Source: an uncultured Anaerolineales bacterium
GTDB lineage: Bacteria; Chloroflexota; Anaerolineae; Anaerolineales; UBA4823
Reading direction: 5' to 3'
Assembly (NCBI GenBank): GCA_903872065.1
Contig: CAIQJJ010000419.1
Location: 1 to 55,552 of the forward strand
Length of the DNA: 55,552 bases
Shown here: piece after piece, positions 4,885 to 50,105 of the stretch
Numbering within the stretch: position 1 is the stretch's first letter
How the letters are laid out: each line of letters begins with the position of its first letter
Program-made: the position numbers and the translations under genes
Notes under the pieces: generated by a model
What the model saw: only the letters and a program-made list of their open reading frames with translations
Told to the model about the DNA's origin: nothing
Database searches by the model: none

Positions 4885-4891
4885 AGCGCGG

Positions 4892-19204: not shown

Positions 19205-19254
19205 AAGACCGTCTTTACTTTGCAGTTAAATTTTCCCCACGATTGGAGTATTGC

Positions 19255-21238: not shown

Positions 21239-21250
21239 GCAGGAGGCGCA

Positions 21251-23789: not shown

Positions 23790-26033
23790 ATGAGCGAAAT
23801 GATCCTTGAAGAACATAAAATCAACGCCAGTGAAGCAATTGTGACCAGCGAGGCGGTCATCAAAGCCCCGCCGAAGTTCATTCAATCGCCGCGCATCCAA
23901 AAATTGGCGCAGCGCAGCCGCGAACTGGCGATCAGCGGCAAACGCCGCCTGGGGTCGCCTGAAATGCCCCTGGGCGATCACGCTTGCTGGATTGACATTG
24001 GGCCTTTTCCTGATCGCGATCAAATGCCCTCCAGGGTCAATGGCTACGAGGCCAGCGGCGAAAGCTGGGGGCGCGATTATGCCTTTCTGGTGGATCATTT
24101 CCCGGTGGATATCTACGAAAATGAGCGCATTGTCGGCGAAATCCATTGGGAGATGCACATGGTGCGGCAGTATGTCTGGCCGCAAAGCGTGCTAAAAGTG
24201 GGCGAGTGGGCGTCAGAGTTGGGCGCCAGCGGGTTCAGCAGCGGTCACACCTGCCCCGACCTGGCCATTGGCCTGGAGCAGGGTTGGGGCGGCATTTTGG
24301 AGCGCATCAAGCGCAGCCGCGCCAAATACCTGGAGCTTGACAATCAAGCCAGGGCCTCTTATCTGCATGGTTTAGAGATGATCTGCGAGTCGGTGATCGG
24401 CTTCATTCAGCGCCATGCCGAGAAAGCCCGCCAACTGGCGCAAGATGAAAGCGACCCCTGGCAAAAACAGACCTATTTGCGCGTCGCCGAATGCTGCGCG
24501 CACATCGCCACGCAGCCTCCGCGCACGTATTATGAAGGCGTGCAGTGGATCCACTTCGCCGTCATGCTCGATCGGGTGGTCGGTCATGGCAATGGCTATG
24601 GGCGGCTCGATCTGTATTTGATTGACCTGTACCGCAAGAGCCGCGCCACCGGCGAGTTAAGCGATGAGGAGGCGCGTGAATATCTATCCGAGATGTTCCT
24701 CAAGCTGCGCGGCCAGTTCTTCAGCCTGGGCGGGCGAGATGCGCAGTTGAACGACGCCACCAACGAGATGAGCTTTGTTGTGCTGGAAGCGTATGACCTG
24801 ATCGGCGACTACAACAACCTGGGCGTGATGTGGCATACCGATATTAACCGCGAGTTTTATAACTACGCCTGCGATGTGCTGGCGCGGCACGGCGAAAGCA
24901 TTCCCGTCCTGGTCAACTACGATCTGATGCGCGAAGCGGAACTGCGCTCCGGTGTGCCGGAAGAGGACGCCTGGCGAGTGGTCTACAGCGGCTGCCAGTG
25001 GTTCTGCATCCCCGGCAAGGAGTACTGCGATCAAGATGTCAATTCGATCAATCTGCTCGTCCCGATGCAGCGCACGATTGCGGCCGCGATCGAGCAGCAG
25101 GCCGCCGATTTCGAGACCTTCTACACCCTCTTTGAAGAAGAACTGACCATCACCGCCCGCGCCCTGCGCACCTGGAAGAACAGCCAGTATGAATTCTTGG
25201 GCAGCCTGTGGCCTGAAATGTTCACCTCGATGAACAGTCACGGGCCTATTGAGCGCGGCATAGACATGGTGGATCAGCGCGGGGTGGATTACCAGTACAC
25301 CTCGGTCAACATTTTAGGCATTCCGAATGTGGCCGATTCGTTCCATGCCATCAGGAAACTGGTCTTTGAACAGAAGCGCTATCCTCTGGCCGAGGTGCAA
25401 GAAGCCGTCGCGACCAACTGGGCCGGACGCGAAGTCATGCGCCAGCGCTTCCTCAACCAGGACAAGTTCGGCAACGATCTGGATGAGGTGGATGCCTTGT
25501 TCGTGCGCGTGACCGAGTCCCTGGCGCGCATCTTGGGCAGTATGGTCAACCTGCGCGGGCAAGAATTTCGCGCCTCGCTCTTTCACTTCCAGGGCCATCT
25601 CACCCCGGAGAGGATCGGGGCGACGCCGGATGGCCGCCTGGCGCAGGAATACCTGGCGCATGGCATCAACCCACAGGTCGGGCGCAACCTGACCGGCCTG
25701 CTGGCTACCGCCAACTCCATCGCCAAGGTCGATCAGCGTAAGTTCCAGGGCGGGACGATGCAGGTTGAGCTGCAGCCGAAGTTCTTTGATGGCAAAGAAG
25801 AAATCTGGAAATACATCCGCGACTTTTCGGACGTTTTCTTCAGAAAGGGCGGCATTCAGATCAATCTCAACATTATGGACTTGAAGAAGCTGCAAGACGC
25901 CATGGATCACCCCGAAAACCCCGCCTACCAAAATATCATCGTGCGCGTGACGGGCTACGCCAGCCGCTTCATTTGCCTGTCGCACGCTTACCAGAAAGAA
26001 TTTGTCGCCCGGATGAATTACGAAGGATTGTAA
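23790..26033 (+). CDS. Glycyl radical enzyme homologue (PFL2/glycerol-dehydratase-like family), substrate unknown
   Basis: C-terminal glycyl-radical motif IIVRVTGYASRF. The PFL-like core reads PRTYYEGVQWIHFAVML...GYGRLDLYLIDLY...FSLGGRD...NEMSFVVLEA. The Cys loop reads YSGCQWFCIPGK. Confidence 0.85.
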   Translation: MSEMILEEHKINASEAIVTSEAVIKAPPKFIQSPRIQKLAQRSRELAISGKRRLGSPEMPLGDHACWIDIGPFPDRDQMPSRVNGYEASGESWGRDYAFLVDHFPVDIYENERIVGEIHWEMHMVRQYVWPQSVLKVGEWASELGASGFSSGHTCPDLAIGLEQGWGGILERIKRSRAKYLELDNQARASYLHGLEMICESVIGFIQRHAEKARQLAQDESDPWQKQTYLRVAECCAHIATQPPRTYYEGVQWIHFAVMLDRVVGHGNGYGRLDLYLIDLYRKSRATGELSDEEAREYLSEMFLKLRGQFFSLGGRDAQLNDATNEMSFVVLEAYDLIGDYNNLGVMWHTDINREFYNYACDVLARHGESIPVLVNYDLMREAELRSGVPEEDAWRVVYSGCQWFCIPGKEYCDQDVNSINLLVPMQRTIAAAIEQQAADFETFYTLFEEELTITARALRTWKNSQYEFLGSLWPEMFTSMNSHGPIERGIDMVDQRGVDYQYTSVNILGIPNVADSFHAIRKLVFEQKRYPLAEVQEAVATNWAGREVMRQRFLNQDKFGNDLDEVDALFVRVTESLARILGSMVNLRGQEFRASLFHFQGHLTPERIGATPDGRLAQEYLAHGINPQVGRNLTGLLATANSIAKVDQRKFQGGTMQVELQPKFFDGKEEIWKYIRDFSDVFFRKGGIQINLNIMDLKKLQDAMDHPENPAYQNIIVRVTGYASRFICLSHAYQKEFVARMNYEGL

Positions 26034-26490: not shown

Positions 26491-27582
26491 TCATCCCTGC
26501 TGGCAGATTTCACTCAACCGTTTCATGAAGTAGCCGTAATTGGCAAAAGAAATATCCGGCGGGCAGCTATGGTCGGTGTGCGGGATGTAGCCGCCGGCCA
26601 GCATCAAGGGCCTGACGCGCGCCAGTTCTTCCTCGATGGCGGCCGGCCCCTGCGCCAGGGCGCGCTTGTCAACGCCTCCCCACAGGCGCAGATCGCGGCC
26701 ATACTTCTGGCGCACCGCCAGCACATCCATGCCGGCCTGGACTTCAAAGGGATAGAGGAAGTTCAAACCAGCATCCAGCCAGACCGGGATTAAGGGGTCG
26801 ATCTGCCCGTCGCTGTCCAGCCCGATATGCCGGACGCCGCGCGCGCGCAGGTAGTCTACCACCCGCCGGTAGCGGGGCAGCATGTACCGCCGCGCCATGG
26901 CCGGGGAGATGAGCGGCCCGGACTTATAGCCCATATCCTCCCAAAAGATGAAGGCGTCAATTTCGATCACATCCAGGATTTGCGCCATCATGGCAATGAT
27001 GAAATCGGCGTTGGCGTCCATCATTTCTTCCAAAAAGGCCGGGTCATCGTAGAACAGCAGGCACAGCTTTTCTACCCCGACCATGTTGCGCAGCGGCCCA
27101 AAGAAACCGCCCCACCGGTCAGAGATAACTCCCAGTGGGATTGGCTCCGCCCGCAACTGCTGAAGCTGCGCGCGCCAATCCGGCCCGATGCGCTGCGCCA
27201 GGTCCGGCTGCATCCGTTCGCGCCAGAAGGAGCGAAATTCAGCGCGGTCTTCCACCGGGAATTTCAAAAATTGAGGCATCGAACTCATCGGTTGGTCTTT
27301 GCGCTCTTTCATCAAAATGCCCTCGTGGTTGTAGTAGATGATGTAGCGATCATCTTCGCTCACCACGCGATGCTCGAACGGCGGCTGGGGGAAAAACCAG
27401 TGGCCGAAAAAGTTGCGCCGGTCGGCCAGTACCGCCGGGTCATTGACGCCGGGTTGGTAGCCCTCTTGTTTCCAGCGCTCGATCGTTTCCGGCCAACCTC
27501 CCCAATCCCAGAAAGGTACCTGGTCAACAGGTTTGTAGTCCATGCACGCGTGAAAGCGTTGCAAAGCCGTCATTGAAGCCAT
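26491..27582 (-). CDS. URO-D superfamily protein, 'DSDG' subtype, function unknown
   Basis: MTALQRFHACMDYKPVDQVPFW..., IFWEDMGYKSGPLISP, and GLDSDGQIDPLIPVWLDAGLNFLYPFEVQAG. Clear paralogue of 31588-32691. AAGGAGA SD. Confidence 0.8.
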   Translation of the reverse strand: MASMTALQRFHACMDYKPVDQVPFWDWGGWPETIERWKQEGYQPGVNDPAVLADRRNFFGHWFFPQPPFEHRVVSEDDRYIIYYNHEGILMKERKDQPMSSMPQFLKFPVEDRAEFRSFWRERMQPDLAQRIGPDWRAQLQQLRAEPIPLGVISDRWGGFFGPLRNMVGVEKLCLLFYDDPAFLEEMMDANADFIIAMMAQILDVIEIDAFIFWEDMGYKSGPLISPAMARRYMLPRYRRVVDYLRARGVRHIGLDSDGQIDPLIPVWLDAGLNFLYPFEVQAGMDVLAVRQKYGRDLRLWGGVDKRALAQGPAAIEEELARVRPLMLAGGYIPHTDHSCPPDISFANYGYFMKRLSEICQQG

Positions 27583-27621: not shown

Positions 27622-28200
27622 TTAGGTATCGGCGCGCTGGCGAAGGGCAAACACGCAGTAAGGGTCGCCGTCCAAGACATTTTTCAGGTGCAGAAATTCA
27701 TAGTCCGGGTTATACGCTTCCTGTTTGGCCTGGTCTACGAAGCAGTACAGCCGGCCAAGCCGGGCGGCCGGCGCGCCCATTTGCATCCACACTGCGGCCA
27801 ATGGGCAGTAGGTGACGACGGAATGTCCCTGGCTTTCGACATCCTTCGACAAGCTCAGGATGCCTTGCGATGGTGAGTTCAGGACGCCTTCCGACGAGGG
27901 GGCTGGAAGGTCTTCGGGGGCGGCTTTTTCCCAGCCAAAGGCGGGTAAATCGCGAATGCGGTTGAAGTTTTCCGGCGTCAGGGGCAGGCCTTGCGCCAGG
28001 AGGTCATCCTTGATGGCCTGGCCGCAGGCATGGCCGTAAGCGCGGATGGCTTTTTCGATCAGGCGTTTGCCTTGTTCATCGCCAAGTTCTTCGACCAAGG
28101 CGCTGGCAAAGGCATGGTACAGCAGGGCGGCGCGGCGCGCCATCAGCCTGACTTCTTCGGTGCATTGGGAAATGGTAAGAGTAGGTTCCTCGGTGGACAT
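27622..28200 (-). CDS. L-2-amino-thiazoline-4-carboxylic acid hydrolase (ATC hydrolase) family-like protein carrying an in-frame repeat insertion
   Basis: The C-terminal CPLAAVWMQMG...LYCFVDQAKQEAYNP...GDPYCVFAL pattern matches what I recall for the ATC-hydrolase family. Start set at MSTEEPTL (ATG 28200). The track ORF extends into repeat DNA. Confidence 0.6.
   Translation of the reverse strand: MSTEEPTLTISQCTEEVRLMARRAALLYHAFASALVEELGDEQGKRLIEKAIRAYGHACGQAIKDDLLAQGLPLTPENFNRIRDLPAFGWEKAAPEDLPAPSSEGVLNSPSQGILSLSKDVESQGHSVVTYCPLAAVWMQMGAPAARLGRLYCFVDQAKQEAYNPDYEFLHLKNVLDGDPYCVFALRQRADT
27831..27897. repeat. REP/MITE-like palindromic element copy inside a CDS
   Basis: Core ATCCTTCGACAAGCTCAGGATGCC at 27841-27864. 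On the gene strand it is translated in frame as ...SSEGVLNSPSQGILSLSKDVESQ... Confidence 0.7.
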
Positions 28201-28210
28201 TGCCTTTTTT

Positions 28211-28370
28211 ATCCTTCGGCTATCGTTCGGCCATCCTTCGACAGGCTCAGGATGCCTGATGGGTAATTGCCTTCTGCATCCTTCGGCCATCCTTCGACAA
28301 GCTCAGGATGCCTGGTGGGTATGTCTTCTTCATCCTTCGGCCATCCTTCGACAGGCTCAGGATGCCTGAG
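28211..28370. repeat. Three tandem copies of the REP-like element (units starting 28211, 28278, 28332)
   Basis: Repeated ATCCTTCGGCCATCCTTCGACARGCTCAGGATGCCTG with periods of 67 and 54 nt. It fills the spacer between two minus-strand genes and supplies the last codons and stop of the upstream gene. Confidence 0.85.
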
Positions 28371-31587: not shown

Positions 31588-32691
31588 ATGAATCATCGTG
31601 AACGTTTCCTGGCGGCGATGGATTTTCGCCGGCCCGACCGCCCCTGTCACCTCGAACACGGCTTTTGGAATGAAACCTTTCAACGCTGGCGCGGCGAAGG
31701 TCTGCCGCCCGAGGTGATTTTACCCGAACTGTTCTTTCACTCGCCGCGCAACGATCTGTTTGGCTATTTCGATGTAGCCAAGATCGCTTACGTGTCGGTC
31801 GAACAGTATTACGTCCCCGCCTTCCCTGAAGAAGTCCTCTCGCTGACCGCCGATGAGCGCTTATGGCGCAATTCGCATGGGGTGCTGCTGCGCGAACGGT
31901 TGAGCAATGTTTCGATGCCCCAATTCCTGGACTACCCGATTAAAAACCGGCAGGATTACGAAGTCTATCGCCCCCGCCTGACTGGTTCGCCCGAAAAGCG
32001 CTATCGCGCCGATTGGGCGGAGCAGATGCGCTTCATCAGCGGGCAAGACCGGGATATTGTGGCGACGCACATGGAGGGATTCTTCGGCTATCCGCGTGAA
32101 CTGCTGGGCGTGGAAAACTTGCTGACGATGTTCTACGACGACCCGGCCCTGATGCACCGGATCATTGATGATCACCTGGAACTGCTCTTGACGCTCTATG
32201 AGCCTGCGATCCGTGACCTGCGGCCTGACTTCGCCTTTATCTGGGAGGATATGTGCTACAAAAACGGGCCGCTGATCGCGCCGCGCACGTTTCGCGCGTT
32301 TCTGCTGCCGGCGTACCAGAAGTTGACCCGCTTTCTCAAGCAAATGGGGGTCAAAAATATTATCGTGGACAGCGACGGCAATGTCGAAAAGCTGATCCCG
32401 CTCTGGCTGGAGGGCGGCGTCACTGGTCTGCTGCCGTTTGAGGTCAAAGCGGGCGGGGATGTGCTGAAGATCAGAAAGCAGTATCCGCAGTTGCAGATCA
32501 TTGGCGGGGTTGAAAAGCACTGCCTGGAGCATGGCCGAACCGAAATTGACGCCGAACTTGCGCGTGTTTTGCCAGGGATGCTGGCGCAGGGAGGTTACGG
32601 TGTGGCGCTGGATCATTGGGTGCATGACGCGATTCCGCTAGAGAATTTCCGCTATTATGTTGAACGGGTAAAAGATTGGAATATGCCGTGA
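31588..32691 (+). CDS. URO-D superfamily protein, 'DSDG' subtype, function unknown
   Basis: MNHRERFLAAMDFRRPDRP..., FIWEDMCYKNGPLIAP, and VDSDGNVEKLIPLWLEGGVTGLLPFEVKAG. Paralogue of 26491-27582. Confidence 0.8.
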   Translation: MNHRERFLAAMDFRRPDRPCHLEHGFWNETFQRWRGEGLPPEVILPELFFHSPRNDLFGYFDVAKIAYVSVEQYYVPAFPEEVLSLTADERLWRNSHGVLLRERLSNVSMPQFLDYPIKNRQDYEVYRPRLTGSPEKRYRADWAEQMRFISGQDRDIVATHMEGFFGYPRELLGVENLLTMFYDDPALMHRIIDDHLELLLTLYEPAIRDLRPDFAFIWEDMCYKNGPLIAPRTFRAFLLPAYQKLTRFLKQMGVKNIIVDSDGNVEKLIPLWLEGGVTGLLPFEVKAGGDVLKIRKQYPQLQIIGGVEKHCLEHGRTEIDAELARVLPGMLAQGGYGVALDHWVHDAIPLENFRYYVERVKDWNMP

Positions 32692-32694
32692 AGA

Positions 32695-32860
32695 GCGGCG
32701 CTTCGACAGGTTCAGCGCGCCTGGTTGTGTGGTAGACATCCTGAGCTTGTCGAAGGATGATTCGGCGCTTCGACAAGCCACGCTTCGACATGTTCAGCGC
32801 GCCTGGTTGTGCGATAGGCATCCTGAGCTTGTCGAAGGATGGTCAGGCTCAGCGCGCCTG
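32695..32860. repeat. Two composite REP-like units (reverse orientation)
   Basis: CGCTTCGACA..TTCAGCGCGCCTGGTTGTG...GGCATCCTGAGCTTGTCGAAGGATG occurs twice, followed by a partial GGTCAGGCTCAGCGCGCCTG. Confidence 0.85.
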
Positions 32861-32920
32861 TGGGAGGTGATATAATTTAACCCTCTATCCGCACTTGCGT
32901 TGGTGACAAAGGAGCTTCGC

Positions 32921-33727
32921 ATGGCATTGTTCAAAATTGGTTGTCAAACGTATAGTTGGGAAATGTTGGGGGACGCATGGCAGGGCGCGCCGGACGATAT
33001 CCTGGAAGCCGTTGCCCAGGCCGGCTACGCCGGAGTTGAATTTAGCAATCAGATGATCGGCAAATACCTGGCCCAACCAGCGCAGTTTGCCCAGGCTTTA
33101 GCGCAGCGCGGCCTGGCCTGCGCCGCATTTGCCTACGCCCGCGCTGGCTTTACCGAGGCGGCGCAAGAGGCCGAAGACCTGGCCGGCCTGGAAACGGCGC
33201 TGCAATTTGCCGCCCATTTCGGCATCCCGCTTGGCCTGGGCGGGCCCTCCAGCCAGGATCACGACCGCCGCCAGGACAAGATGGCCCAGGCGCTGCGTTT
33301 TTACGCCCAGGCCGCCCGGCGGGCGCAGACGTATGGCGTCAGCCTGCTCATTCACCCTCATTCTCATCACACCTCGCTGGTTTTGACCGCGGATGAATAC
33401 GATCAACTGCTTACGGCCGTCGCGCCGTTGGGAATTGGCTTCAACCCCGACACGGGACATATCCTGCGCGGCGGGCAGGATGTCATGGCCTGCTTGCAGC
33501 GTCACCGGCCTCAGATCGGCCACGTACATATCAAAGACGTGGATGCGAACGGCAGTTGGGCCGCGCTGGGGCAGGGCATTACCCCTCTGGCTGAACTGCT
33601 CGCCTGGCTGGAGCAGACCAGCTACGCCGGCTGGGTGGTGATCGAAGAAGAATCCGCCGCCGTCTATCCCGAACCATCGGCGGCGATCGCCGCCAACCGG
33701 CGCGTGCTGCAGCGCTTCAATGTTTAA
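32921..33727 (+). CDS. Sugar phosphate isomerase/epimerase (xylose-isomerase-like TIM barrel) family protein
   Basis: FKIGCQTYSWEM...AGYAGVEFS...IHPH...GHVHIKDV...VVIEEE pattern. Start set at ATG 32921 with AAGGAG upstream. Confidence 0.85.
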   Translation: MALFKIGCQTYSWEMLGDAWQGAPDDILEAVAQAGYAGVEFSNQMIGKYLAQPAQFAQALAQRGLACAAFAYARAGFTEAAQEAEDLAGLETALQFAAHFGIPLGLGGPSSQDHDRRQDKMAQALRFYAQAARRAQTYGVSLLIHPHSHHTSLVLTADEYDQLLTAVAPLGIGFNPDTGHILRGGQDVMACLQRHRPQIGHVHIKDVDANGSWAALGQGITPLAELLAWLEQTSYAGWVVIEEESAAVYPEPSAAIAANRRVLQRFNV

Positions 33728-33761
33728 GCCCCCGGTGGGCGTGTTTTGCTAGGAGTCAAGC

Positions 33762-34568
33762 ATGGAAATTATTTGCGCCTCAATCTGTTATCGCGGCTAC
33801 GCCGACGACGAAGTGCAAGCCACCCTCGATCTCGCCCCGCGCATCGGCTACCACTGGATGGAAGTGCATGGGCCGCTAACCTGGAGCCTGGAGGCCATTC
33901 GCCAGTTCGATCTGCCGGCGCTGCAAACGCGCTTGCGGACCTCTGGCATGGCCTGCGCCGGGCTGTACACACCCGGCTGGGGCGGGCAGGATGATGACGA
34001 CGCCCTGGCGCACGCCGCGGCGATCGCGCGCTGCGCCGGCTTTGCCCAGGCGCTCGGCGCGACCCATGTGACCAGCACCGGCGCCGAACGGCGCGGGACG
34101 CGAGGAGCGCTCGAACGCGTCATTCGCTGCGCCCAGGCGGTTCTCCAGGCGCAGCCGGCCGAGAGCGCCATCCGCCTGGCCTTGGAGCCTCATTTTGGCA
34201 ATGCACTGGAACAGCCCGCCGACTTCAGCGCCGTCCTCTCCGCCTGCCCGGACGAGCGCCTGGGCGTCTGCGTGGATACCGGGCATTTCCATGCCGCCGG
34301 GGTGGATATGCCGGCCTTCATCCGCCAGTTTGCCGGGCGCATCTACAGCGTCCATTTGAAGGATCACCTCGGCCCGCGCTCGGTTGGCATTGGTCGCGGG
34401 GAGATTGACCTGCCCGGCGTGCTGGCCGCGCTGCAAGCGACCGGCTACCGCGGCGGCCTGACCGTGGAACTGGAAGTGGACGATCCGCAAAACCTGGCGC
34501 GTTACACCGAAGAAGCCTATTTTTACTTGAGTGGTCTGCTCGGACAGAAGCTCGCAGAAAGGAATTGA
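33762..34568 (+). CDS. Sugar phosphate isomerase/epimerase (xylose-isomerase-like TIM barrel) family protein
   Basis: LALEPH...DTGHFHAAGVD...SVHLKDH...LTVELE pattern. AGGAG SD. Confidence 0.8.
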   Translation: MEIICASICYRGYADDEVQATLDLAPRIGYHWMEVHGPLTWSLEAIRQFDLPALQTRLRTSGMACAGLYTPGWGGQDDDDALAHAAAIARCAGFAQALGATHVTSTGAERRGTRGALERVIRCAQAVLQAQPAESAIRLALEPHFGNALEQPADFSAVLSACPDERLGVCVDTGHFHAAGVDMPAFIRQFAGRIYSVHLKDHLGPRSVGIGRGEIDLPGVLAALQATGYRGGLTVELEVDDPQNLARYTEEAYFYLSGLLGQKLAERN

Positions 34569-34571
34569 TTG

Positions 34572-35594
34572 ATGCAACCCCGTACCACCGCCCGCATTGC
34601 TTTTATCGGCGCTGGCAATCACGCCACCGAATCGCTGTATCCCAATATCCCCATGATCCCGGAGTTTGAGCTGGTCGCGGTCTGCGACATAGACCCGCCG
34701 AAGGCGCAGCGCACGGCGCGCCGCTACGGCGCGCAAGCCTTTACCGACGTGGAGACCATGCTGGATCAGGTGGAACTGGACGGATGCTGCGTCTGCGGCC
34801 CGGCCGAGATGCACCACGCCGTCAGCTTGCAGGTGCTGCGGCGCGGCCTGCGCCTGTTCGTCGAAAAGCCGCCCGCCCCCAACCTGCGCCAGGCCGAGGA
34901 ACTGGTGGAAAGCGCCGCCCAGCACAATACCTGGGGCATGGTCGGGTTTATGAAGCGTTTTGCGCCGGCCAATGTGCTGGCGCGGGAGTTCATGGATTCG
35001 CCAGCCTTTGGAACGCTTTCCTCTCTGACCTTGATCCACGGCTGCGGGCCGTATGACGATCTGCGCCGCATGATGTACTTCAACGCCATCCACTTGATTG
35101 ACCTGGGGCGCTTCCTGGGCGGCGAGGTGGAGCGCGTCTTCGCCTACCAATGCAATGGAGGGCGGAGCAATTACGGCCTGGCGGCGACGTGGATGCTGCG
35201 CAGTGGGGTCGCGGCGACGCTCAACCAAAATTCCGGCCAGACCTGGAGCGATTGTTCTGAGGCGGTCTACCTGACCGGCGCGCAGGTCGGCATTTTTATT
35301 GACGCCTCGCGCGAGGTCAAGATCACCTATGACGGCGCCCAGTTTGCCCCAGGCGCTGGCCTGCAGCTCTTCGGTTTCCGCGCCGAGCACAGCGTTTCGG
35401 GCAATATGGCCGGTTGGGCCGCCGGCGGCCATTATCAGCGCGGCTACTGGGGCGAACTGAGCCGCTTTGCCCGCGCCTGCCTGGGGCTTGAAGCGCCCTC
35501 GCCCGATTTGCACGATGCTTTGCAGAACATCCGCCTGATCGAGGCTATGCTGGAGAGCGCCGCCACAGGACGAGAAGTTAAGCTGCCGCTGTGA
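34572..35594 (+). CDS. Gfo/Idh/MocA family oxidoreductase
   Basis: N-terminal Rossmann motif RIAFIGAGNHATE...VAVCDID and the EKPPAPN motif. ATG at 34572; the track starts at TTG 34569. Confidence 0.85.
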   Translation: MQPRTTARIAFIGAGNHATESLYPNIPMIPEFELVAVCDIDPPKAQRTARRYGAQAFTDVETMLDQVELDGCCVCGPAEMHHAVSLQVLRRGLRLFVEKPPAPNLRQAEELVESAAQHNTWGMVGFMKRFAPANVLAREFMDSPAFGTLSSLTLIHGCGPYDDLRRMMYFNAIHLIDLGRFLGGEVERVFAYQCNGGRSNYGLAATWMLRSGVAATLNQNSGQTWSDCSEAVYLTGAQVGIFIDASREVKITYDGAQFAPGAGLQLFGFRAEHSVSGNMAGWAAGGHYQRGYWGELSRFARACLGLEAPSPDLHDALQNIRLIEAMLESAATGREVKLPL

Positions 35595-35696
35595 TTCGGC
35601 GCTTCGACAAGCCACGCTTCGACAGGCTCAGCGCGCCTGTCCGCACGATAGGCATCCTGAGCTTGTCGAAGGATGGTTGAAGGATGGTCGAAGGAT
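35594..35696. repeat. Composite REP-like unit (reverse orientation), near-identical to 32757-32841
   Basis: ATTCGGCGCTTCGACAAGCCACGCTTCGACAGGCTCAGCGCGCCTG...GATAGGCATCCTGAGCTTGTCGAAGGATGGTTGAAGGATGGTCGAAGGAT. Confidence 0.85.
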
Positions 35697-35708
35697 ATAG
35701 GAGTAAAA

Positions 35709-36500
35709 GTGTTCCGTATCGCGGTTGTTCAACAAGACCACAACCCGGGGCAGCCAGAGCAAAACCGGCAAAAAGCATTGGCCGCCGCGTCCAACGCACT
35801 GGCCGAGGGCGCAGAACTCATCCTCTTCCACGAGGAGCTTTTGTTGGGTTACACCGCCGGCGTGCGGGAGCTTGCCGAGCCGCTGAATGGCCCGACCTCG
35901 CGCGCCTTTCAAACCCTTTTGCAGGGGAGTGAGTCGCTCATTGTCTATGGCCTCACCGAACGCGACGGGGAAGACCTGTACATCACCGCGCCGGTGGTCT
36001 CTGCCAGGGGTGTGCTGACCCGGTATCGGAAAACGCACCTTTGGTGGCGCGCCAGCGGACTCAGGCACGAACCCACCTTTTACCGCCCCGGCGACAGGCT
36101 GGTGAGCTTCCGCTTCAAAGATCACCGGATCGGAATCATGATTTGCTATGATGGGGATTTTCCAGAGATGACGCGTTCCTACGCCAACCTGGGCTGCTCG
36201 CTGCTCCTCTGGCTGAACAACCGCGGCAGCCGCGGCCATGCCGAGGTCAGGGATCTCGCCTGGCGTAACTCGATGGTGATCGCCGCCTCCTGCTGCTGCG
36301 GCGTGGATGAAGCCGGCAACCTCTGCCGCGGCGGAAGCAATCTCACCGGCGCGGACGGGGCGTTGTTGGGCGAAATTTGGGATCGCGAGGGCATGATCCT
36401 CGTGGATGTAGATTTAGATGAAGCGCTCCAGTCACGCCAGCAGAATCCCTGGTACCGCGGTCGAAGGCCGGAACTTTATGTGACGACCACAGACACTTGA
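35709..36500 (+). CDS. Carbon-nitrogen hydrolase (nitrilase superfamily) protein
   Basis: FRIAVVQQ..., ELILFHEE (catalytic Glu), YRKTHLW (Lys) and IMICYDGDFPE (Cys) form the E-K-C triad. Start proposed at GTG 35709 with AGGAG 5 nt upstream. The track start at 35673 lies in repeat DNA. Confidence 0.8.
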   Translation: MFRIAVVQQDHNPGQPEQNRQKALAAASNALAEGAELILFHEELLLGYTAGVRELAEPLNGPTSRAFQTLLQGSESLIVYGLTERDGEDLYITAPVVSARGVLTRYRKTHLWWRASGLRHEPTFYRPGDRLVSFRFKDHRIGIMICYDGDFPEMTRSYANLGCSLLLWLNNRGSRGHAEVRDLAWRNSMVIAASCCCGVDEAGNLCRGGSNLTGADGALLGEIWDREGMILVDVDLDEALQSRQQNPWYRGRRPELYVTTTDT

Positions 36501-36509
36501 AAGGTAAAA

Positions 36510-38657
36510 ATGCCTGATACTCCCTCATCTTCCATATTTCCTTTTTCGACAGACCTCAGCCTTTTCGCCGTCGCGCGCCTGTCGCCAGAGACTCACCGCC
36601 TGGCCGACCGCGCCCGGCAGGGCCAGGTGGGGCGGTATATGCGCCCGGCAGATTTTCAACTGGACGCAGCGGCGCAACTCACCTCCCCCGACCTGCAATA
36701 CGCGGCCGCGGTGCGTTTAATCGCCGAGCGCGCCCCGCTGAACATCACCCCCGGCGAACACCTGGCAGGATCGGCCACCCTCTCCGAAGCCCGCCGTCAT
36801 ATCACGCCGCTCCTGGGTGTTGGCAGCACCAGCCACACAACCCCCGGCTTTGACCAGGCGCTCAAAACAGGCTATCGTGGACTGCGGGTGCGGGTTGAGG
36901 CGCGCCTGCAGCGGAATGACCTGGAAGCGCGTGGACGAGACTTTCTGCAAGCCATGCTCATCTGCCTGGAAGCGGCAGATGCCTGGCATGAGCGCTACAT
37001 GCGGACATTGGATGAGTGCATTACCAGCCGGCCGGCGGACGATCCAGACGCCGTTGTGTACCGGCGCGTGCGCCAGGCGTTGGCCAATGTGCCGGAAAAC
37101 CCGCCGGCCAACTTTGCCGAAGCCGTCCAATCGCTGTGGTTCATCTTTGCCTTCCAGCGTTTGTGCGGCAACTGGCCCGGCCTGGGCCGGATCGATCAGA
37201 TGCTTGGCCCTTATTTGCAGGCTGACCTGGCGGCCAATGCCATCACACTGGATGAGGCCCGCGAACTGCTGGCCCACTTCTGGATCAAGGGGTGTGAGTG
37301 GACAGACGGAACCTCCAACGGCAGCGGGGATGCGCAGTATTACCAGAACATCATCCTCTCTGGGGTGGATGCGGAGGACGTGGACGTTACGAATGAGGTC
37401 ACTTACCTGGTGTTGGATGTGATCGAAGAGTTAGGCATCAGCGACTTTCCCGTGGCGGTGCGCGTCTCGCGGCGCACGCCGGAGCGGCTTTGGCGGCGAA
37501 TTGCCGAGGTGCAGCGGCGCGGCGGCGGTACGGTGGCTATTTATAATGAAGACCTGGTCATCCGCTCCATGCACCAGTTTGGCTATCCCCTGGGCGAAGC
37601 GCGCCAGTTTACCAACGATGGCTGCTGGGAGACGCTGATCCCTGGTAAGACCAACTTTCTTTATTGGCCGTTCGATATCCTGGCGCTGCTGCAGCAAGTC
37701 TTGGGAGTGAACCAGCCTGAACAGCCTGTCGCCGATTACCCAACCTTCGAAGCGCTGTACCAGGCTTTTCGCCAACGCCTGGAGCGCCAGATCAGCGACA
37801 TGCACACCGCCGCTGACCGTCACGCCCTGGATGGCCCGCCAGCGCCATTGATCTCGCTCTTGGTGGAGGGCTGCATTGAAAACGCCCGCGGCTATCATCA
37901 GCGCGGCCCGCAGTATACCGTCTTTGCCTTTCACGCTGGCGGCTTGCCGGATGTCGCCAATGCGCTGCTGGCGCTGCGTCGCGTGGTCTATGAGGAAAAA
38001 CGCCTCACACTGCCTGAACTGGCGGCAGTGCTGCGCCAGGATTGGGCCGGCCAGGACGTGCTGCGCCAGTGGATCCGCCGCCATATCACTTTCTATGGCA
38101 ATGGCGACGCGGCGGCGGATGAGATGGCGCGCCGTGTGTTCGATGATTTCACCGCCCTGGTCGGTCAGATTCCCGAACGAAACGGCGTCAAACGCCCGGC
38201 CGGGTTGAGCACCTTTGGCCGTCAGATCGAATGGGCCGCGCAGCGCGGGGCCACCGCCGCCGGCGCTCACCGCGGCGAATACCTGTCCAATAATTTCTCA
38301 CCCACCCCAGGCAGTGAGAAGAACAGCCTGACCGGGGTGATCCACTCGTTTTGCAGTGTGGATTTTATGAAGCTGCCCAATGGAACGGCCCTGGACATCA
38401 AAATCCATCCCAGCAGCTTGCAAGGCGAGGATGGGCTGGCGGCGCTGGTCGGGGTGATGAAATCGTTCGTTGAATTGGGCGGCTGGTTCATGCACATTGA
38501 TGTGGTGGACAGCACAGTGCTGCGCGAGGCACAGCTTCATCCTGAACGGTACACAGACCTGGCCGTGCGCATCTCAGGCTGGTCGGCGCGCTTTGTGACC
38601 CTCTCGGCGGAGTGGCAAGAGATGATCATCCGCCGCACCGAGCAAGAATTTCGTTAA
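36510..38657 (+). CDS. Glycyl radical enzyme homologue (PFL2/dehydratase-like family), substrate unknown
   Basis: Glycyl-radical motif LAVRISGWSARF, Cys loop NDGCWETLIPGK (canonical G-C-x-E), and PANFAEAVQSLWFIFAF...GRIDQMLGPYL. 715 aa. Confidence 0.85.
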   Translation: MPDTPSSSIFPFSTDLSLFAVARLSPETHRLADRARQGQVGRYMRPADFQLDAAAQLTSPDLQYAAAVRLIAERAPLNITPGEHLAGSATLSEARRHITPLLGVGSTSHTTPGFDQALKTGYRGLRVRVEARLQRNDLEARGRDFLQAMLICLEAADAWHERYMRTLDECITSRPADDPDAVVYRRVRQALANVPENPPANFAEAVQSLWFIFAFQRLCGNWPGLGRIDQMLGPYLQADLAANAITLDEARELLAHFWIKGCEWTDGTSNGSGDAQYYQNIILSGVDAEDVDVTNEVTYLVLDVIEELGISDFPVAVRVSRRTPERLWRRIAEVQRRGGGTVAIYNEDLVIRSMHQFGYPLGEARQFTNDGCWETLIPGKTNFLYWPFDILALLQQVLGVNQPEQPVADYPTFEALYQAFRQRLERQISDMHTAADRHALDGPPAPLISLLVEGCIENARGYHQRGPQYTVFAFHAGGLPDVANALLALRRVVYEEKRLTLPELAAVLRQDWAGQDVLRQWIRRHITFYGNGDAAADEMARRVFDDFTALVGQIPERNGVKRPAGLSTFGRQIEWAAQRGATAAGAHRGEYLSNNFSPTPGSEKNSLTGVIHSFCSVDFMKLPNGTALDIKIHPSSLQGEDGLAALVGVMKSFVELGGWFMHIDVVDSTVLREAQLHPERYTDLAVRISGWSARFVTLSAEWQEMIIRRTEQEFR

Positions 38658-38677: not shown

Positions 38678-40381
38678 ATGATCGACTCTCTGGCTGAGCG
38701 TTTACAACAAAACGCCGCCCGTTTTCCTGACAAGGCGGCGTTGATCATCCCTGGCCGCCGCGCCGCCTGGGAAACCATCACCTATCGCCAGTTGGCGGCG
38801 CGCGGCGAGCTGTTTGAGCGCGGCCTGGCGGCGTGCGGCCTCCAGGCAGGGATGCGAGCGGTGCTGATGGCCCCGCCCAGCGTAGATTTCTTTGCCCTGG
38901 TTTTCGCCTTGTTCCGGCGCGGGGTCGTGTCGGTCATGATCGATCCAGGGATTGGGCTGACCAATGTCACCACCTGCCTGGCGCGCTGCCAGCCGGAGGT
39001 CTATTTCGGCTCGGCGCTGACGCACGGCCTCCGGCGCTGGTTCGGCTGGGGGCGCGCCAGCCTGCGCCAGAACCTCACGTTGGCCGAGGTCGCCCGCGCC
39101 GGAATTTCCGCCCCGCCGGCCCCGCCAATATCCCTGAACGATGGTTCTGTGGTCGCAATCATCCACACTACCGGCAGCACTGGCCTGCCCAAGGGCGTCA
39201 TCTACACCGCGGCGAATTTCGCCGCCCAGGTGGATATGCTGGTCGAGGCGCTCCAACTGCGCGGCGATGAAATTGACCTGCCAGCTTTCCCCATCTTTGC
39301 CCTGGTTGACTGCCTGCTAGGGGTCACGGCGGTCATCCCCGATCTGCGCTTCCCCCGCCCGGCAGCCGTGGACGCGGCGCGCCTGGCAGCGGCCATCCAG
39401 GCGCATCAAGTCAACACCATGTTTGCCTCGCCGGCCGCCCTGGCCCGCCTGGCGCGCGATGGCAGAGAAAAAGGACTCCGCCTGCCGGGCTTGCAAAAAG
39501 TGATCACCGCCGGCGCGCCTGCCCCGCCTGAGGTGCAAGAGCAGTTTATCGAGATGCTCTCACCGAGCGCCAATCTGTTCGGCATCTATGGCTCGACCGA
39601 GACTTTGCCGGTCTCGCTCGTTAACAGCCGTGAAGTTTTGCAAGAGACGCGCGATCTTTCGGCGCAAGGCGCGGGAGTGTGCATCGGGCGGCCGACGGCC
39701 GGGGCGCAGGTGCAAATTGTCCCTATCAGCGATGAGGCGTTAAGCGCCGCCGAGGCCCAACCGCTGCCGGTGGGCGTGGTGGGCGAAATCGCCGTCCAAG
39801 GCGCGGCGGTGACAGAACTCTACGTCGAAGAAGGCGCGTTGAATTTAGCGCCATCCAAGCCTCAAATCGGCATGCTGAGCTTGTCGAAGCATGGACTGTC
39901 AAAGCACAGTTCGTCAAAGCACAGTTTGTCGAAGCACAGCCTGTCGGGCCAGGCGAAGATTCTCACTGCCGACGGCGAGATTCTGCACCGCATGGGCGAC
40001 CTGGGTTACTTCGACGAACAGGGACGCTTATGGTACTGCGGACGCAAGTCGCAGCGCGTGGCGACTGCCGCCGGGACGCTCTTCACCGAGCAGGTGGAAG
40101 GGATTTTCAACGCTCACCCGCTGGTGTACCGCACGGCGCTGGTTGGGGTAGAGATCGCCGGCGAAGTTCAACCTGTGCTGTGGGTGGAGCGAAATCCGGC
40201 CGGCCGCGGCGCAGATCAAAACCGGCTGCGGGCGGAACTTTTGGAACTGGCAAAGGCTCATCCAATGACGCATTCGATCCAACACATCCTGTTTCACCCG
40301 GCTTTTCCCACCGATATCCGCCACAATTCCAAGATCATCCGCGAGAAATTGGCGGAACAAGCCAAAAAGCGCATCCCATAA
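38678..40381 (+). CDS. AMP-dependent synthetase/ligase (acyl-CoA ligase-like) with an in-frame repeat insertion
   Basis: AMP-binding motif IIHTTGSTGLPKGV, YGSTE, and HRMGDLGYFDEQGRLWYCGRK. Start set at MIDSLAERL (ATG 38678); the track start overlaps the GRE gene. Confidence 0.85.
   Translation: MIDSLAERLQQNAARFPDKAALIIPGRRAAWETITYRQLAARGELFERGLAACGLQAGMRAVLMAPPSVDFFALVFALFRRGVVSVMIDPGIGLTNVTTCLARCQPEVYFGSALTHGLRRWFGWGRASLRQNLTLAEVARAGISAPPAPPISLNDGSVVAIIHTTGSTGLPKGVIYTAANFAAQVDMLVEALQLRGDEIDLPAFPIFALVDCLLGVTAVIPDLRFPRPAAVDAARLAAAIQAHQVNTMFASPAALARLARDGREKGLRLPGLQKVITAGAPAPPEVQEQFIEMLSPSANLFGIYGSTETLPVSLVNSREVLQETRDLSAQGAGVCIGRPTAGAQVQIVPISDEALSAAEAQPLPVGVVGEIAVQGAAVTELYVEEGALNLAPSKPQIGMLSLSKHGLSKHSSSKHSLSKHSLSGQAKILTADGEILHRMGDLGYFDEQGRLWYCGRKSQRVATAAGTLFTEQVEGIFNAHPLVYRTALVGVEIAGEVQPVLWVERNPAGRGADQNRLRAELLELAKAHPMTHSIQHILFHPAFPTDIRHNSKIIREKLAEQAKKRIP
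39870..39946. repeat. REP-like core variant plus 15-nt tandem repeats inside the ligase CDS
   Basis: GCATGCTGAGCTTGTCGAAGCATG at 39870-39893 is followed by CTGTCAAAGCACAGT / TCGTCAAAGCACAGT / TTGTCGAAGCACAGC / CTGTCG. It is translated as MLSLSKHGLSKHSSSKHSLSKHSLS. Confidence 0.8.
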
Positions 40382-40413: not shown

Positions 40414-40995
40414 ATGGAAGCTTTTATCCCTCCCCCCTCCCATATCCCTTTTTATATCCGCATTGGCTTGTGGCTGGCGCGCCGCGCCGCCGGCGTAGAC
40501 CTGCTGCCGCCGCGCCTCCTGGCGTGGTATCCCAAAGCGGCGATCAGTTCTGGCATTCTCGAAGCGCTGATCGCCCATGGCGACGCCCACGGATGCGCCC
40601 ACGGATGCGCCCACGGAGGCGCTCACGGCGATGGCCGCTGCGACGAGCGCCTGCTCAAATTGGTGCGCATGACCGTCTCGTTCACTGTCGTCTGTCCCTT
40701 CTGCATGGGGCTGAATTCGGCCGGGTGGGAAAAGCTGCTGACGGAGGATGAACTGCTGGCCTTACAAGGGCGCAAATCCCTGGATGAAACGCCCACTTTC
40801 ACCCCGCAAGAGCGCCTGGCGATTGAGTACGCTCGCCTGGCTTCGCAGACCCCGCTGGCCTTCACCCCGGAATTTGGCGTCCGTCTGCGTGAACAGTTCA
40901 CCGAGCGCGAGATTGTCATCCTGGCGACCACCGCGGCGCAGGTCAATTATTGGGCGCGCCTGATCCAGGCTTTGGGCTGCCCACCGGTGGGCTGA
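40414..40995 (+). CDS. Carboxymuconolactone decarboxylase/AhpD-like family protein
   Basis: The CPFC (CxxC) motif in VVCPFCMGLN and the helical repeat context fit the AhpD/CMD fold. It contains a His/Cys-rich tandem insertion. Confidence 0.6.
   Translation: MEAFIPPPSHIPFYIRIGLWLARRAAGVDLLPPRLLAWYPKAAISSGILEALIAHGDAHGCAHGCAHGGAHGDGRCDERLLKLVRMTVSFTVVCPFCMGLNSAGWEKLLTEDELLALQGRKSLDETPTFTPQERLAIEYARLASQTPLAFTPEFGVRLREQFTEREIVILATTAAQVNYWARLIQALGCPPVG
40573..40632 (+). repeat. 12-nt in-frame microsatellite x5 encoding (A-H-G-X)5
   Basis: GCCCATGGCGAC GCCCACGGATGC GCCCACGGATGC GCCCACGGAGGC GCTCACGGCGAT translates to AHGD AHGC AHGC AHGG AHGD. Confidence 0.85.
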
Positions 40996-41007: not shown

Positions 41008-42114
41008 TTATTCTTTGGCGGTGGAGGCGCGCAAAATCAGGCGTGTGGGGAGCAAAATCTTTTGGGGTGCAGCGTCGGGATTGGCGATTTTATCCAGCAG
41101 CATTTCGCAGGCCCGCGCCCCGATTTCCACCTCTTGCTGCTCAATGGAACTGAGCGGGACGGGGGCAAGTTGGGCAAAAACGCTGTTGTCAAAACCCAAG
41201 ACGGACAGGTCTTTGGGAACACACAGCCCTTTGGATAGGGCTAAACGCATGACGCCAATCGCAATGTAATCGTTAATACAGAAAACCGCCGTCGGACGCT
41301 CTGGCACGGAGAGCGCATGATCGATCTCGATCAATTCTTCGGCGGCGTATTCGGGAATTTCCCCCGGCGGGTATGCGCCGCAATCCAACAGTTTGATGGT
41401 CGCGTAGGGCAGCCGCCCGGCGTCGCGCATCGCCTGCTGGTAGCCGCGGATGCGCTCGATAACGCTGCTGGCGTCCGAAAGATGTGAGACGCAGGCAATC
41501 CGGCTGTGCCCCTGGTTGAGAAGATACTGCACCCCCTGATAGGCGGCGTTGAAATTGTCCGACAACACAACGCTGCCGCAAAACTCGTCCAATTCCCGAT
41601 CCACCAGAACGGTTGGAATGGTGCAGATCAGGTCTTGTAAGATTTCTGGTTCGCCTTTTGTCGCCAGTGGAAACAAGATAATCCCCGCCACACGTTGGTT
41701 TTTGAGGCGGCTGAGTTGTTCCGTCTCGATGCGCAGATCATTCTCGATATTGGTGTAGAGCAGGTGGTAGCCCCTCTCGCGCGTCACCCGCTCGGCGCCC
41801 TTGATGATATTGGAACTCAGCCGGTCATGGGTGTGCGGGACGGTGATGCCGATTAATCCGGATGGGGCTTCCAGTTCATTGTGGGGTGTATCCGCCTGGT
41901 TGATAAACGTCCCCTTGCCGGGCTGCCGCGCCAGGATGCCGCGGTCTTCCAATAGCTGCAGCGCCTTACGAATCGTGCCGCGGCTCAAGCTAAATTCTTG
42001 GGCCAATTCAAGCTCAGTCGGAAAACGGCTTTCGGGTTTGTAGTACCCGTCAGTAATCCGCTGTTGCAATGTATCTCGAAGTTGCAGGTGAAGGCGCTGC
42101 GCAGATTTATTCAT
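41008..42114 (-). CDS. AraR-type transcriptional regulator (GntR-family wHTH N-domain fused to a LacI/GalR-type sugar-binding domain)
   Basis: The N-terminus FPTELELAQEFSLSRGTIRKALQLLEDRGILARQPGKGTF is a GntR wHTH. The remainder (IGITVPHTHDRLSSNIIKG..., GIILFPL, FCINDYIAIGVM, VLGFDN) is a PBP1/LacI-type effector domain. Confidence 0.85.
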   Translation of the reverse strand: MNKSAQRLHLQLRDTLQQRITDGYYKPESRFPTELELAQEFSLSRGTIRKALQLLEDRGILARQPGKGTFINQADTPHNELEAPSGLIGITVPHTHDRLSSNIIKGAERVTRERGYHLLYTNIENDLRIETEQLSRLKNQRVAGIILFPLATKGEPEILQDLICTIPTVLVDRELDEFCGSVVLSDNFNAAYQGVQYLLNQGHSRIACVSHLSDASSVIERIRGYQQAMRDAGRLPYATIKLLDCGAYPPGEIPEYAAEELIEIDHALSVPERPTAVFCINDYIAIGVMRLALSKGLCVPKDLSVLGFDNSVFAQLAPVPLSSIEQQEVEIGARACEMLLDKIANPDAAPQKILLPTRLILRASTAKE

Positions 42115-49578: not shown

Positions 49579-50105
49579 TGCCATCCTTCGCCAGGCGCGC
49601 TGAGCCTGTCGAAGCGTGGCTTGTCGAAGCGTGGCTTGTCGAAGCGCTGTCGAAGCGCTTCTTTGACAGTTCATCCGAAGCCAGATTATGGATCGCGGAT
49701 CAGCCGTCCTCGAATAGAACCCGAATACTCGAATAAGAAGCGTCCCGTCGCCGCGCCTCTCCCGCGGACGAGGCGCGGCGAATCGAAGTCCCTCATTCGT
49801 GTATTCGAGTCTCTTATTCGAGGATGGCTCTCCTTCGACAATCCTTCGACAAGCTCAGGATGCCTGACCCCTCAGCAGGCGCGCTGAGCCTGTCGAAGCG
49901 CTGTCGAAGCGTGACTTGTTCAAGCGTTATCCTTCGACAAGCTCAGGATGCCTGACCTTTCGCCAGGCGCGCTGAGCCTGTCGAAGCGCTACCGGAGCGT
50001 AACGTTCAAGCGTTATCCTTCGACAAGCTCAGGATGCCTGTCCCCTCGACAGGCGCGCTGAGCCTGCCGAAGCGTGACTTTTCAAAGCGTGACTTATTCA
50101 AGCAC
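49579..50105. repeat. 527-nt intergenic repeat block: partial REP unit with GCTTGTCGAAGCGTG tandem repeats, a nested inverted-repeat element, then three 87-nt tandem composite REP units
   Basis: Units start at 49841, 49928 and 50015 (exact 87-nt period). Each reads ATCCTTCGACAAGCTCAGGATGCCTG...CAGGCGCGCTGAGCCTGYCGAAGCG.... The central element spans 49708-49823 and has a 12-bp perfect GC hairpin at 49748-49781. Confidence 0.85.

Follow-up and report, generated by a model that had tools for sequence, protein, structure and literature searches.

What does a short glycyl radical enzyme (GRE) do when its gene sits between a hydrolase gene and an AMP-forming ligase gene, with no activase gene beside it? 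This question is raised by the gene at 36510-38657 (+) of contig CAIQJJ010000419.1 from an uncultured Anaerolineales bacterium, which we call GRE2. The entire 55,552-nucleotide (nt) contig was analyzed and is referred to below as the window. Our best reading, to which we give a probability of about 70%, is that GRE2 is a functional CXE-type GRE of the eliminase/isomerase type that is activated in trans and acts on a hydroxylated, probably sugar-derived substrate. We favor it because of the domains and motifs of the protein, the invariance of G690, C372, E374, and H109, the activases in 18 loci of its family, and a confident AlphaFold2 (AF2) model that matches eliminases. The gene and the residues on which the argument turns are as follows.

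36510-38657, + strand: GRE2, a glycyl radical enzyme of an uncharacterized clade (Pfam PFL-like and Gly_radical domains)
36834-36836, + strand: H109, aligned with His166 of 1,2-propanediol dehydratase (PD) and with the histidine of trans-4-hydroxy-L-proline dehydratase (HypD)
37614-37631, + strand: Cys loop NDGCWE, residues 369-374, with C372 as candidate thiyl radical site and E374 as candidate general base
38568-38594, + strand: glycyl radical loop RISGWSARF, residues 687-695, with G690 at 38577-38579; R687, G690, W691, A693, and F695 are invariant in the family

GRE2 and its family

The GRE2 open reading frame (ORF) is intact, with 715 codons, and carries both domains of the GRE superfamily: the PFL-like barrel (PF02901, E = 9e-91, matched over profile positions 154-641 only) and the C-terminal glycyl radical domain (PF01228, E = 1e-18). 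The radical glycine is kept in an RVxG-type loop (R687-I-S-G690-W-S-A-R-F). The Cys-loop cysteine, C372, is invariant in the family and lies opposite PD Cys438, and C372-W373-E374, also invariant, matches the CXE motif of GRE 1,2-eliminases and isomerases. An earlier note on this DNA, made from the sequence alone, had described a GRE with RISGWSARF and NDGCWE in a 715-amino-acid (aa) protein, likened its Cys-x-Glu loop to that of 1,2-eliminases, and remarked on its short length. The motifs and Pfam domains bear out this description, and C372 and E374 align with PD Cys438 and Glu440. GRE2 is also shorter than the solved GREs (about 765-850 aa), as is its family (about 697-760 aa). GRE2 scored below all NCBIfam cut-offs, including those of HypD, its best family-specific match (295 versus 1100), CutC (223 versus 1050), and the subfamily TIGR01774 (308 versus 678).

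A protein search with GRE2 yielded 1673 matches within the set of candidates that were scored. The top 120, all full-length (about 674-972 aa), share 54-65% identity with GRE2 and score at least 872 bits; homologs that carry names are called only "pyruvate formate lyase family protein." From the GTDB set, with one genome per species, we retrieved 80 GRE2-family loci, whose flanks reach at most 10 kb and are much shorter in many cases. They come from Chloroflexota, Armatimonadota, Hydrogenedentota, Planctomycetota, Lentisphaerota, Kiritimatiellota, Verrucomicrobiota (including Akkermansia), Bacteroidota, and Clostridia, and identity to GRE2 across the family is about 50-65%. The combination of R[IV][SA]GWSARF and NDGCWE was seen in every full-length member parsed from related loci and serves as the family signature.

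Alignments of 95 and 105 members revealed the same invariant residues: S106, S108, H109, R217, G220, G226-R227, D229, Q276, Y278-Q279-N280, N369-E374, and S567-R571, followed in the C-terminal region by V686-R687, G690-W691, A693, and F695. G690, C372, E374, and H109 never vary in members from at least eight phyla, at identities of about 50-65%, a sign that the radical machinery is under purifying selection. In a neighbor-joining tree, the family is compact and separated by a long branch from GRE1, another GRE encoded in the window. GRE2 groups with an Anaerolineales member, so the tree makes Chloroflexota the probable source of the window. Full-text literature searches returned no biochemically characterized member. 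The clade, a branch of the oxygen-sensitive GREs, is large, phylogenetically compact, uncharacterized, and common in sugar-degrading bacteria.

Some family members of ~960 aa carry a LamG/Laminin_G_3 insertion of ~220 aa between residues 135 and 142 (GRE2 numbering). These proteins (P0022, P0077, P0101, P0104, P0109, P0115, and P0117; loci L075-L077, L080, L081, L084, and L085) come from Hydrogenedentota, Planctomycetales, and "Nitrospirales" metagenome-assembled genomes (MAGs). A lectin-like domain within a GRE is unusual.

Structure, active site, and proposed mechanism

The AF2 model of GRE2 has a pLDDT of 93.3 and a pTM of 0.92. In Foldseek comparisons, the predicted fold matched B12-independent glycerol dehydratase (GD), PD, HypD, CutC, N-methyl-hydroxyproline dehydratases, and PflD with template modeling (TM) scores of 0.83-0.86 at 21-24% identity. 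As these values hardly vary, GRE2 is about equally distant from all of these enzymes. By sequence, its best solved relatives are PD (5I2A, E = 5e-70), HypD (6VXC), and GD (1R8W), and it did not qualify as an equivalog of any characterized group (GD/PD, HypD, CutC, HpsG/HpfG, IslA, or YbiW/PflD).

The roles of active-site residues in hydrogen-atom abstraction, hydroxyl deprotonation, and leaving-group protonation have been described, including those of the CXE glutamate and GD His164 (PMC13450708). We mapped the pocket of GRE2 through pairwise sequence alignments, not coordinates. In these alignments, H109, C372, and E374 lie opposite PD His166, Cys438, and Glu440, and C372 and E374 also lie opposite the GCVE loop of HypD. 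We take PD His166 and the HypD histidine to be the equivalents of GD His164, which has been proposed as the general acid of the dehydratases. PD His283/Ser284 fall opposite N221/W222 of GRE2, PD Asp452 opposite W386, and PD Val696 opposite F569. We assume that these PD residues are substrate-contact positions of GD and PD, and that PD His283/Ser284 correspond to GD His281/Ser282 and PD Asp452 to GD Asp447. In GRE2, W386 is flanked by the invariant F383 and Y385, F569 is followed by the invariant R571, and an invariant Trp stands between the Cys and the Glu of CxE. We therefore predict a pocket rich in aromatic residues, with a conserved Arg nearby.

GRE2 shares with GD from C. butyricum (1R8W/1R9D) and PD from R. 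inulinivorans (5I2A/5I2G) the ten-stranded GRE barrel (Foldseek E about 3e-46, TM 0.84-0.85, 22-24% identity), the C-terminal glycyl loop, the Cys-x-Glu loop, and the histidine conserved as H109. In contrast to these enzymes, GRE2 is about 70-130 aa shorter, its N-terminal 100 residues lie outside the PFL-like profile match, its diol-binding positions are replaced (N221/W222, W386, and F569), and its CxE reads C-W-E. The microcompartment and aldehyde dehydrogenase context is also missing. We found no bacterial microcompartment (BMC) domain protein, of the kind that marks GRE-associated microcompartment (GRM) loci, among the 41 window ORFs scanned with Pfam or in annotated related loci, and no aldehyde dehydrogenase partner near GRE2 among the scanned window ORFs.

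HypD is the sole known GRE that aligns with GRE2 in one stretch (residues 106-714, E = 5e-68), and it shares the CXE motif and the conserved His. It differs in that HypD Asp278 lies opposite P223 and in that the context of GRE2 has no link to proline or Stickland metabolism. The isomerases YbiW and PflD (8ID7 and 8ID0), which open the rings of 1,5-anhydroglucitol-6-P and 1,5-anhydromannitol-6-P, are CXE-type GREs with sugar-derivative substrates (PMC13450708), and PflD has a TM score of 0.86 to the GRE2 model. Chemistry like theirs would be most compatible with the glycan-degradation context of the GRE2 family, although identity is about 22-23%, scores are below those of GD and PD, and GRE2-family genes have no conserved phosphotransferase system (PTS) or aldolase partners in their vicinity. 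The aminoacyl radical enzymes (AAREs) are likewise uncharacterized, mostly metagenomic PFL-like proteins, with Ala, Ser, or Thr at the position of the radical Gly; the paper on them does not mention the phyla of the GRE2 family (PMC11528403). In contrast to the AAREs, both GRE2 and GRE1 keep the Gly.

We modeled the mechanism on GD, PD, HypD, CutC, YbiW, and PflD. A radical-SAM activase, encoded outside the window, would take a hydrogen atom from G690, and the resulting glycyl radical would generate a thiyl radical on C372. This thiyl radical would remove a hydrogen atom from the carbinol carbon of the substrate, whose hydroxyl group would be hydrogen-bonded to and deprotonated by E374. The neighboring C-O (or other C-X) bond would then break with the help of H109, and the product radical would regain a hydrogen atom from C372. 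The net reaction in the source organism would be a 1,2-elimination or a ring-opening isomerization.

Activases in the family and in the window

An activase gene directly adjoins the GRE gene in 18 of the 80 related genome loci. The encoded proteins are roughly 300 aa long, with the motif GPGIRTTVFxKGCxxxCxWCHNPE and, in addition, two Cys clusters of the ferredoxin type. Their scores on TIGR02494 ("glycyl-radical enzyme activating protein"; cut-off 174) range from 290 to 323 bits. This linkage to TIGR02494 activases indicates a genuine radical-enzyme family. Adjacent activases occur in Bacteroidota (4/4), Clostridia (3/4), Lentisphaerota (4/19), and Planctomycetota (3/11 parsed, plus 2 more), and none were found within the available flanks in Armatimonadota (0/13), Hydrogenedentota (0/5), or Chloroflexota (0/2). 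Activase-linked members are dispersed over the family tree and intermixed with unlinked ones, and GRE2 is no less similar to linked members (for example, one at 57% identity, L010) than to the rest.

As the earlier note had claimed, the window contains no activase in any frame. The Radical_SAM domain is absent from the 41 window ORFs scanned with Pfam. We searched all six reading frames of the window with a profile made from 12 family activases and obtained no match (best E = 0.96, 4.4 bits); as a positive control, the same profile recovered the 18 activases in related loci. A scan of the window for CxxxCxxC disclosed no missed activase, and tblastn of the window with the GRE1-type activases of two related loci (L171 and L172) yielded no match.

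The note had also considered separation from an activase unusual. This does not hold, since only 18 of 80 family loci have an adjacent activase; lack of one is the majority state and says little about function. Nor is the family devoid of activases, given that adjacent TIGR02494 genes are spread across its tree and that an activase lies beside an Anaerolineae GRE1 ortholog. Some GREs rely on an activase encoded elsewhere, as in Escherichia coli, where TdcE and GrcA use PflA. A profile search of a 5.8-billion-protein set with the 12 family activases returned at least 8000 matches at E < 1e-30.

The other GRE of the window, of which GRE2 is a paralog as the earlier note had rightly said, bears on whether the lineage can activate such enzymes.

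23790-26033, + strand: GRE1, a 747-aa paralog with 25% identity to GRE2 that belongs to another clade; its Gly loop reads RVTGYASRF and its Cys loop SGCQWF

The Cys loop of GRE1 lacks the Glu of CXE. Its clade is very conserved, with orthologs at 80-86% identity across Anaerolineae, Lentisphaerae, and Verrucomicrobiae. A TIGR02494 activase lies directly downstream of the GRE1 ortholog in L171 (10001-13257) and in L172 (10001-13242), which is from an 8.6-Mb genome. Because L171 is an Anaerolineae MAG and its activase immediately follows a GRE1 ortholog that is 86% identical, the lineage can evidently activate GREs. Downstream of GRE1 in the window, there is neither an activase nor a remnant of one; similarity to the Anaerolineae MAG ends at the GRE1 stop codon, and a hairpin follows.

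On the strand of GRE1 and just upstream of it are genes for 2-oxoacid dehydrogenase E1-alpha, E1-beta, and E2 (19243-22693, +). A DUF4432 protein, presumably aldose-epimerase-like, is encoded between this set and GRE1 (22690-23769, +), and the whole group follows a GntR/UTRA regulator. A lipoyl-dependent complex beside a GRE is an odd pairing. The window also encodes four URO-D/MtaA-CmuA-like paralogs in sugar-catabolic surroundings (3685-5001, -; 6757-7938, -; 26491-27582, -; and 31588-32691, +). Such genes lie near GRE2-family genes in 7-8 of 86 loci, with two copies in L002.

Gene neighborhoods, alternatives, and significance

To find recurrent neighbors, ORFs from the GRE-family loci and the window were clustered by BLASTP. 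Only two recurred: an AraC-type regulator gene, divergently oriented and present at 22 loci, and the activase gene, present at 18. Sugar-related genes found beside family members include GH28, GH38, GH35/42, GH97, GH13, SusD/E, sulfatase, PfkB, AP_endonuc_2, and Gfo genes. The closest homolog outside the species (L002, 65% identity) is flanked by GH28 and GH38 genes, and its surroundings also include URO-D-like genes and, near the GRE, an AP_endonuc_2 gene. Other annotated contexts include an IclR gene followed by GRE and activase, downstream of SusE and GH13 genes; GH97, esterase, and pyruvyl transferase genes followed by GRE, activase, and sulfatase; a transporter gene followed by activase and GRE; and an AraC gene followed by GRE, a GDE-like gene, Gfo, and GH32/43. 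At L089, an Armatimonadota locus, the GRE is immediately preceded by an AP_endonuc_2 gene and followed by PfkB and HAD genes. The glycan/sugar theme of these neighbors is suggestive only. We consider a carbohydrate-derived hydroxylated small molecule the most likely substrate, because the pocket residues are unlike those of every characterized GRE and the family context is one of glycan degradation; the LamG insertion of some members was counted toward this sugar context.

The neighborhood of GRE2 itself comprises the following features.

32900-35594, + strand: two AP_endonuc_2 (xylose-isomerase-like TIM barrel) genes and a Gfo/Idh/MocA oxidoreductase gene (Pfam)
35602-35693, no strand assigned: intergenic copy of a dispersed inverted-repeat element with core CTTCGACAAGC
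35673-36500, + strand: carbon-nitrogen hydrolase of the nitrilase superfamily (PF00795, E = 2.6e-33)
38678-40381, + strand: AMP-forming ligase of the PRK09274 fatty-acid-CoA-ligase family, also similar to OleC (PF00501; NF006754)
40414-40995, + strand: 193-aa protein with one CPFC motif and weak AhpD/YciW-like similarity (NF053654, E = 9e-11)
41008-42114, - strand: convergent regulator with a GntR-type helix-turn-helix and a sugar-binding periplasmic-binding-protein (PBP) domain, kept beside the ligase gene in same-species contigs

This layout, with the hydrolase gene ending 9 nt upstream of GRE2, the ligase and CxxC AhpD-like genes downstream, and two TIM barrels and a Gfo gene upstream, agrees with that given in the earlier note. 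The AP_endonuc_2 and Gfo genes are separated from the hydrolase gene by the repeat element. The hydrolase likely starts at GTG 35709, giving 263 aa, as in the gene call of a duplicate contig (L001). It reaches no NCBIfam equivalog and, read by eye, its sequence appears to keep the Glu-Lys-Cys catalytic context. The ligase scores 555 bits on NF006754 (cut-off 478). By the gene call of the same contig it starts at 38678, 20 nt after GRE2; an alternative mechanical ORF from GTG 38612 would overlap GRE2. The AhpD-like ORF follows on the same strand after 32 nt; it has no Pfam match, and its NF053654 score is far under the cut-off. In the source species, GRE2 probably shares a transcript with the hydrolase, ligase, and AhpD-like genes.

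Within the AhpD-like ORF, a low-complexity run, HGDAHGCAHGCAHGGAHGDG, precedes the single CPFC motif, and variants of 189-197 aa in same-species contigs point to a repeat of varying length. The repetitive extragenic palindromic (REP) element that had been noted at 35594-35696 is a real dispersed repeat, as its core CTTCGACAAGC occurs 24 times in the window versus 1.2 expected. Copies lie at 27844-28356, 32745-32837, 35602-35693, 39879-39934, 49604-50028, and 54685, and most are intergenic. The cluster at 39879-39934 falls within the AMP-ligase gene and keeps its reading frame; it encodes LSLSKHGLSKHSSSKHSLSKHSLSG (LSKH repeat), an insertion that the coding sequence tolerates.

The hydrolase, ligase, and AhpD-like proteins gave no match when used as tblastn queries (E <= 1e-5) against 86 GRE2-family loci spanning 1.26 Mb. 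Among 80 metagenome loci with relatives of the ligase (38-62% identity), many of them on short contigs, no hydrolase, GRE, or AhpD-like homolog was found within 6 kb. An Anaerolineales locus with a GRE at 63% identity (L006) has none of the three partners. Outside the window, we saw the four genes in this order only in near-identical contigs from six assemblies; these carry an identical ligase and belong to the same species. The neighborhood is a lineage-specific juxtaposition, not a conserved pathway. The nitrilase-GRE-ligase combination that the earlier note had put forward as a pathway is thus not supported by co-occurrence (0/86 and 0/80 loci), and since the triad is limited to one species, the idea of an amide or amine substrate draws on adjacency there and nowhere else.

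That idea would make the hydrolase, GRE2, AMP-ligase, and AhpD-like genes a single catabolic operon for an amide or amine compound, perhaps derived from an amino sugar, in which deamidation is followed by radical elimination and activation of the resulting acid. The genes do share a strand with gaps of only 9, 20, and 32 nt, the arrangement is stable across the same-species contigs of six metagenome assemblies, a GntR/PBP regulator that would sense sugars converges on the cluster, and the hydrolase seems to retain its Glu-Lys-Cys context. However, none of the three partners occurs at any of the 86 GRE-family loci, the ligase-relative loci lack the remaining genes in all 80 cases, and the closest outside homologs stand in other contexts, between GH28 and GH38 genes in L002 and without the partners in L006. 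The ligase, moreover, belongs to a fatty-acid-CoA-ligase/OleC-like family that does not suggest small hydrophilic acids. We therefore regard the pathway as unlikely, and conceivable only as a species-specific recruitment. It is less probable still that GRE2 is non-radical in its source lineage, a decaying relic or repurposed protein in an organism that lacks an activase. Consistent with such a loss are the missing activase beside either GRE, the absence of even a remnant after GRE1 where the 86%-identical ortholog has its activase, the lack of adjacent activases at any Chloroflexota, Armatimonadota, or Hydrogenedentota locus, and a family member (L046) in a MAG labeled Chthonomonas calidirosea, a species whose type strain is aerobic. 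Yet the ORF is intact and full length, all invariant family residues are kept, including G690, C372, E374, and H109, members without an adjacent activase do not have longer branches than others, and trans-encoded activases are well established, as for TdcE and GrcA with PflA. Slightly more improbable again is that GRE2 is a divergent ortholog of a characterized eliminase such as glycerol or propanediol dehydratase, HypD, or CutC. PD, HypD, and GD are its top Protein Data Bank matches in both sequence and fold, and the His, Cys-x-Glu, and Gly residues are conserved, but GRE2 is only 21-24% identical to all of them with near-equal scores and falls far under every NCBIfam equivalog cut-off. In addition, the substrate-contact positions differ (N221/W222, W386, and F569), the CxE contains an invariant Trp, and no BMC shell or aldehyde dehydrogenase genes lie near GRE2.

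Several observations also weigh against a trans-activated eliminase or isomerase acting on a sugar derivative. The 55.5-kb window has no activase beside either GRE, and none adjoins the GRE within the available flanks of the Armatimonadota, Hydrogenedentota, or Chloroflexota loci. The aromatic pocket of GRE2 is predicted from pairwise alignments only. Beyond regulators and activases there is no conserved neighbor, so the substrate class is a loose thematic association in phyla that are rich in sugar genes, and no family member is biochemically characterized in the literature searched.

With these points taken into account, we still favor a functional, trans-activated CXE-type GRE, and we consider GRE2 a moderately interesting target for enzyme discovery, not an anomaly. 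Two cautions for annotation follow: the gene order of one species is poor ground for pathway inference, and a missing adjacent activase should not count as anomalous. According to a 2026 review, whole GRE clades are still without experimental validation (PMC13450708). The GRE2 clade is well defined, highly conserved, and taxonomically broad, with cognate activases ready in its Bacteroidota, Clostridia, and Planctomycetota members, and this makes it a tractable target for a new anaerobic glycan or sugar reaction. Tentatively, and at somewhat less than even odds, we propose that the NDGCWE/GWSARF clade carries out a GRE transformation not yet described, on a carbohydrate-derived substrate, and that in lineages such as this one the enzyme relies on a distant, shared activase and has been recruited into species-specific operons. 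Such a reaction may be the dehydration or ring opening of a polyol, deoxy-sugar, or anhydro-sugar, and it may be used by glycan-degrading anaerobes of the PVC superphylum, Armatimonadota, Chloroflexota, Hydrogenedentota, Bacteroidota, and Clostridia.

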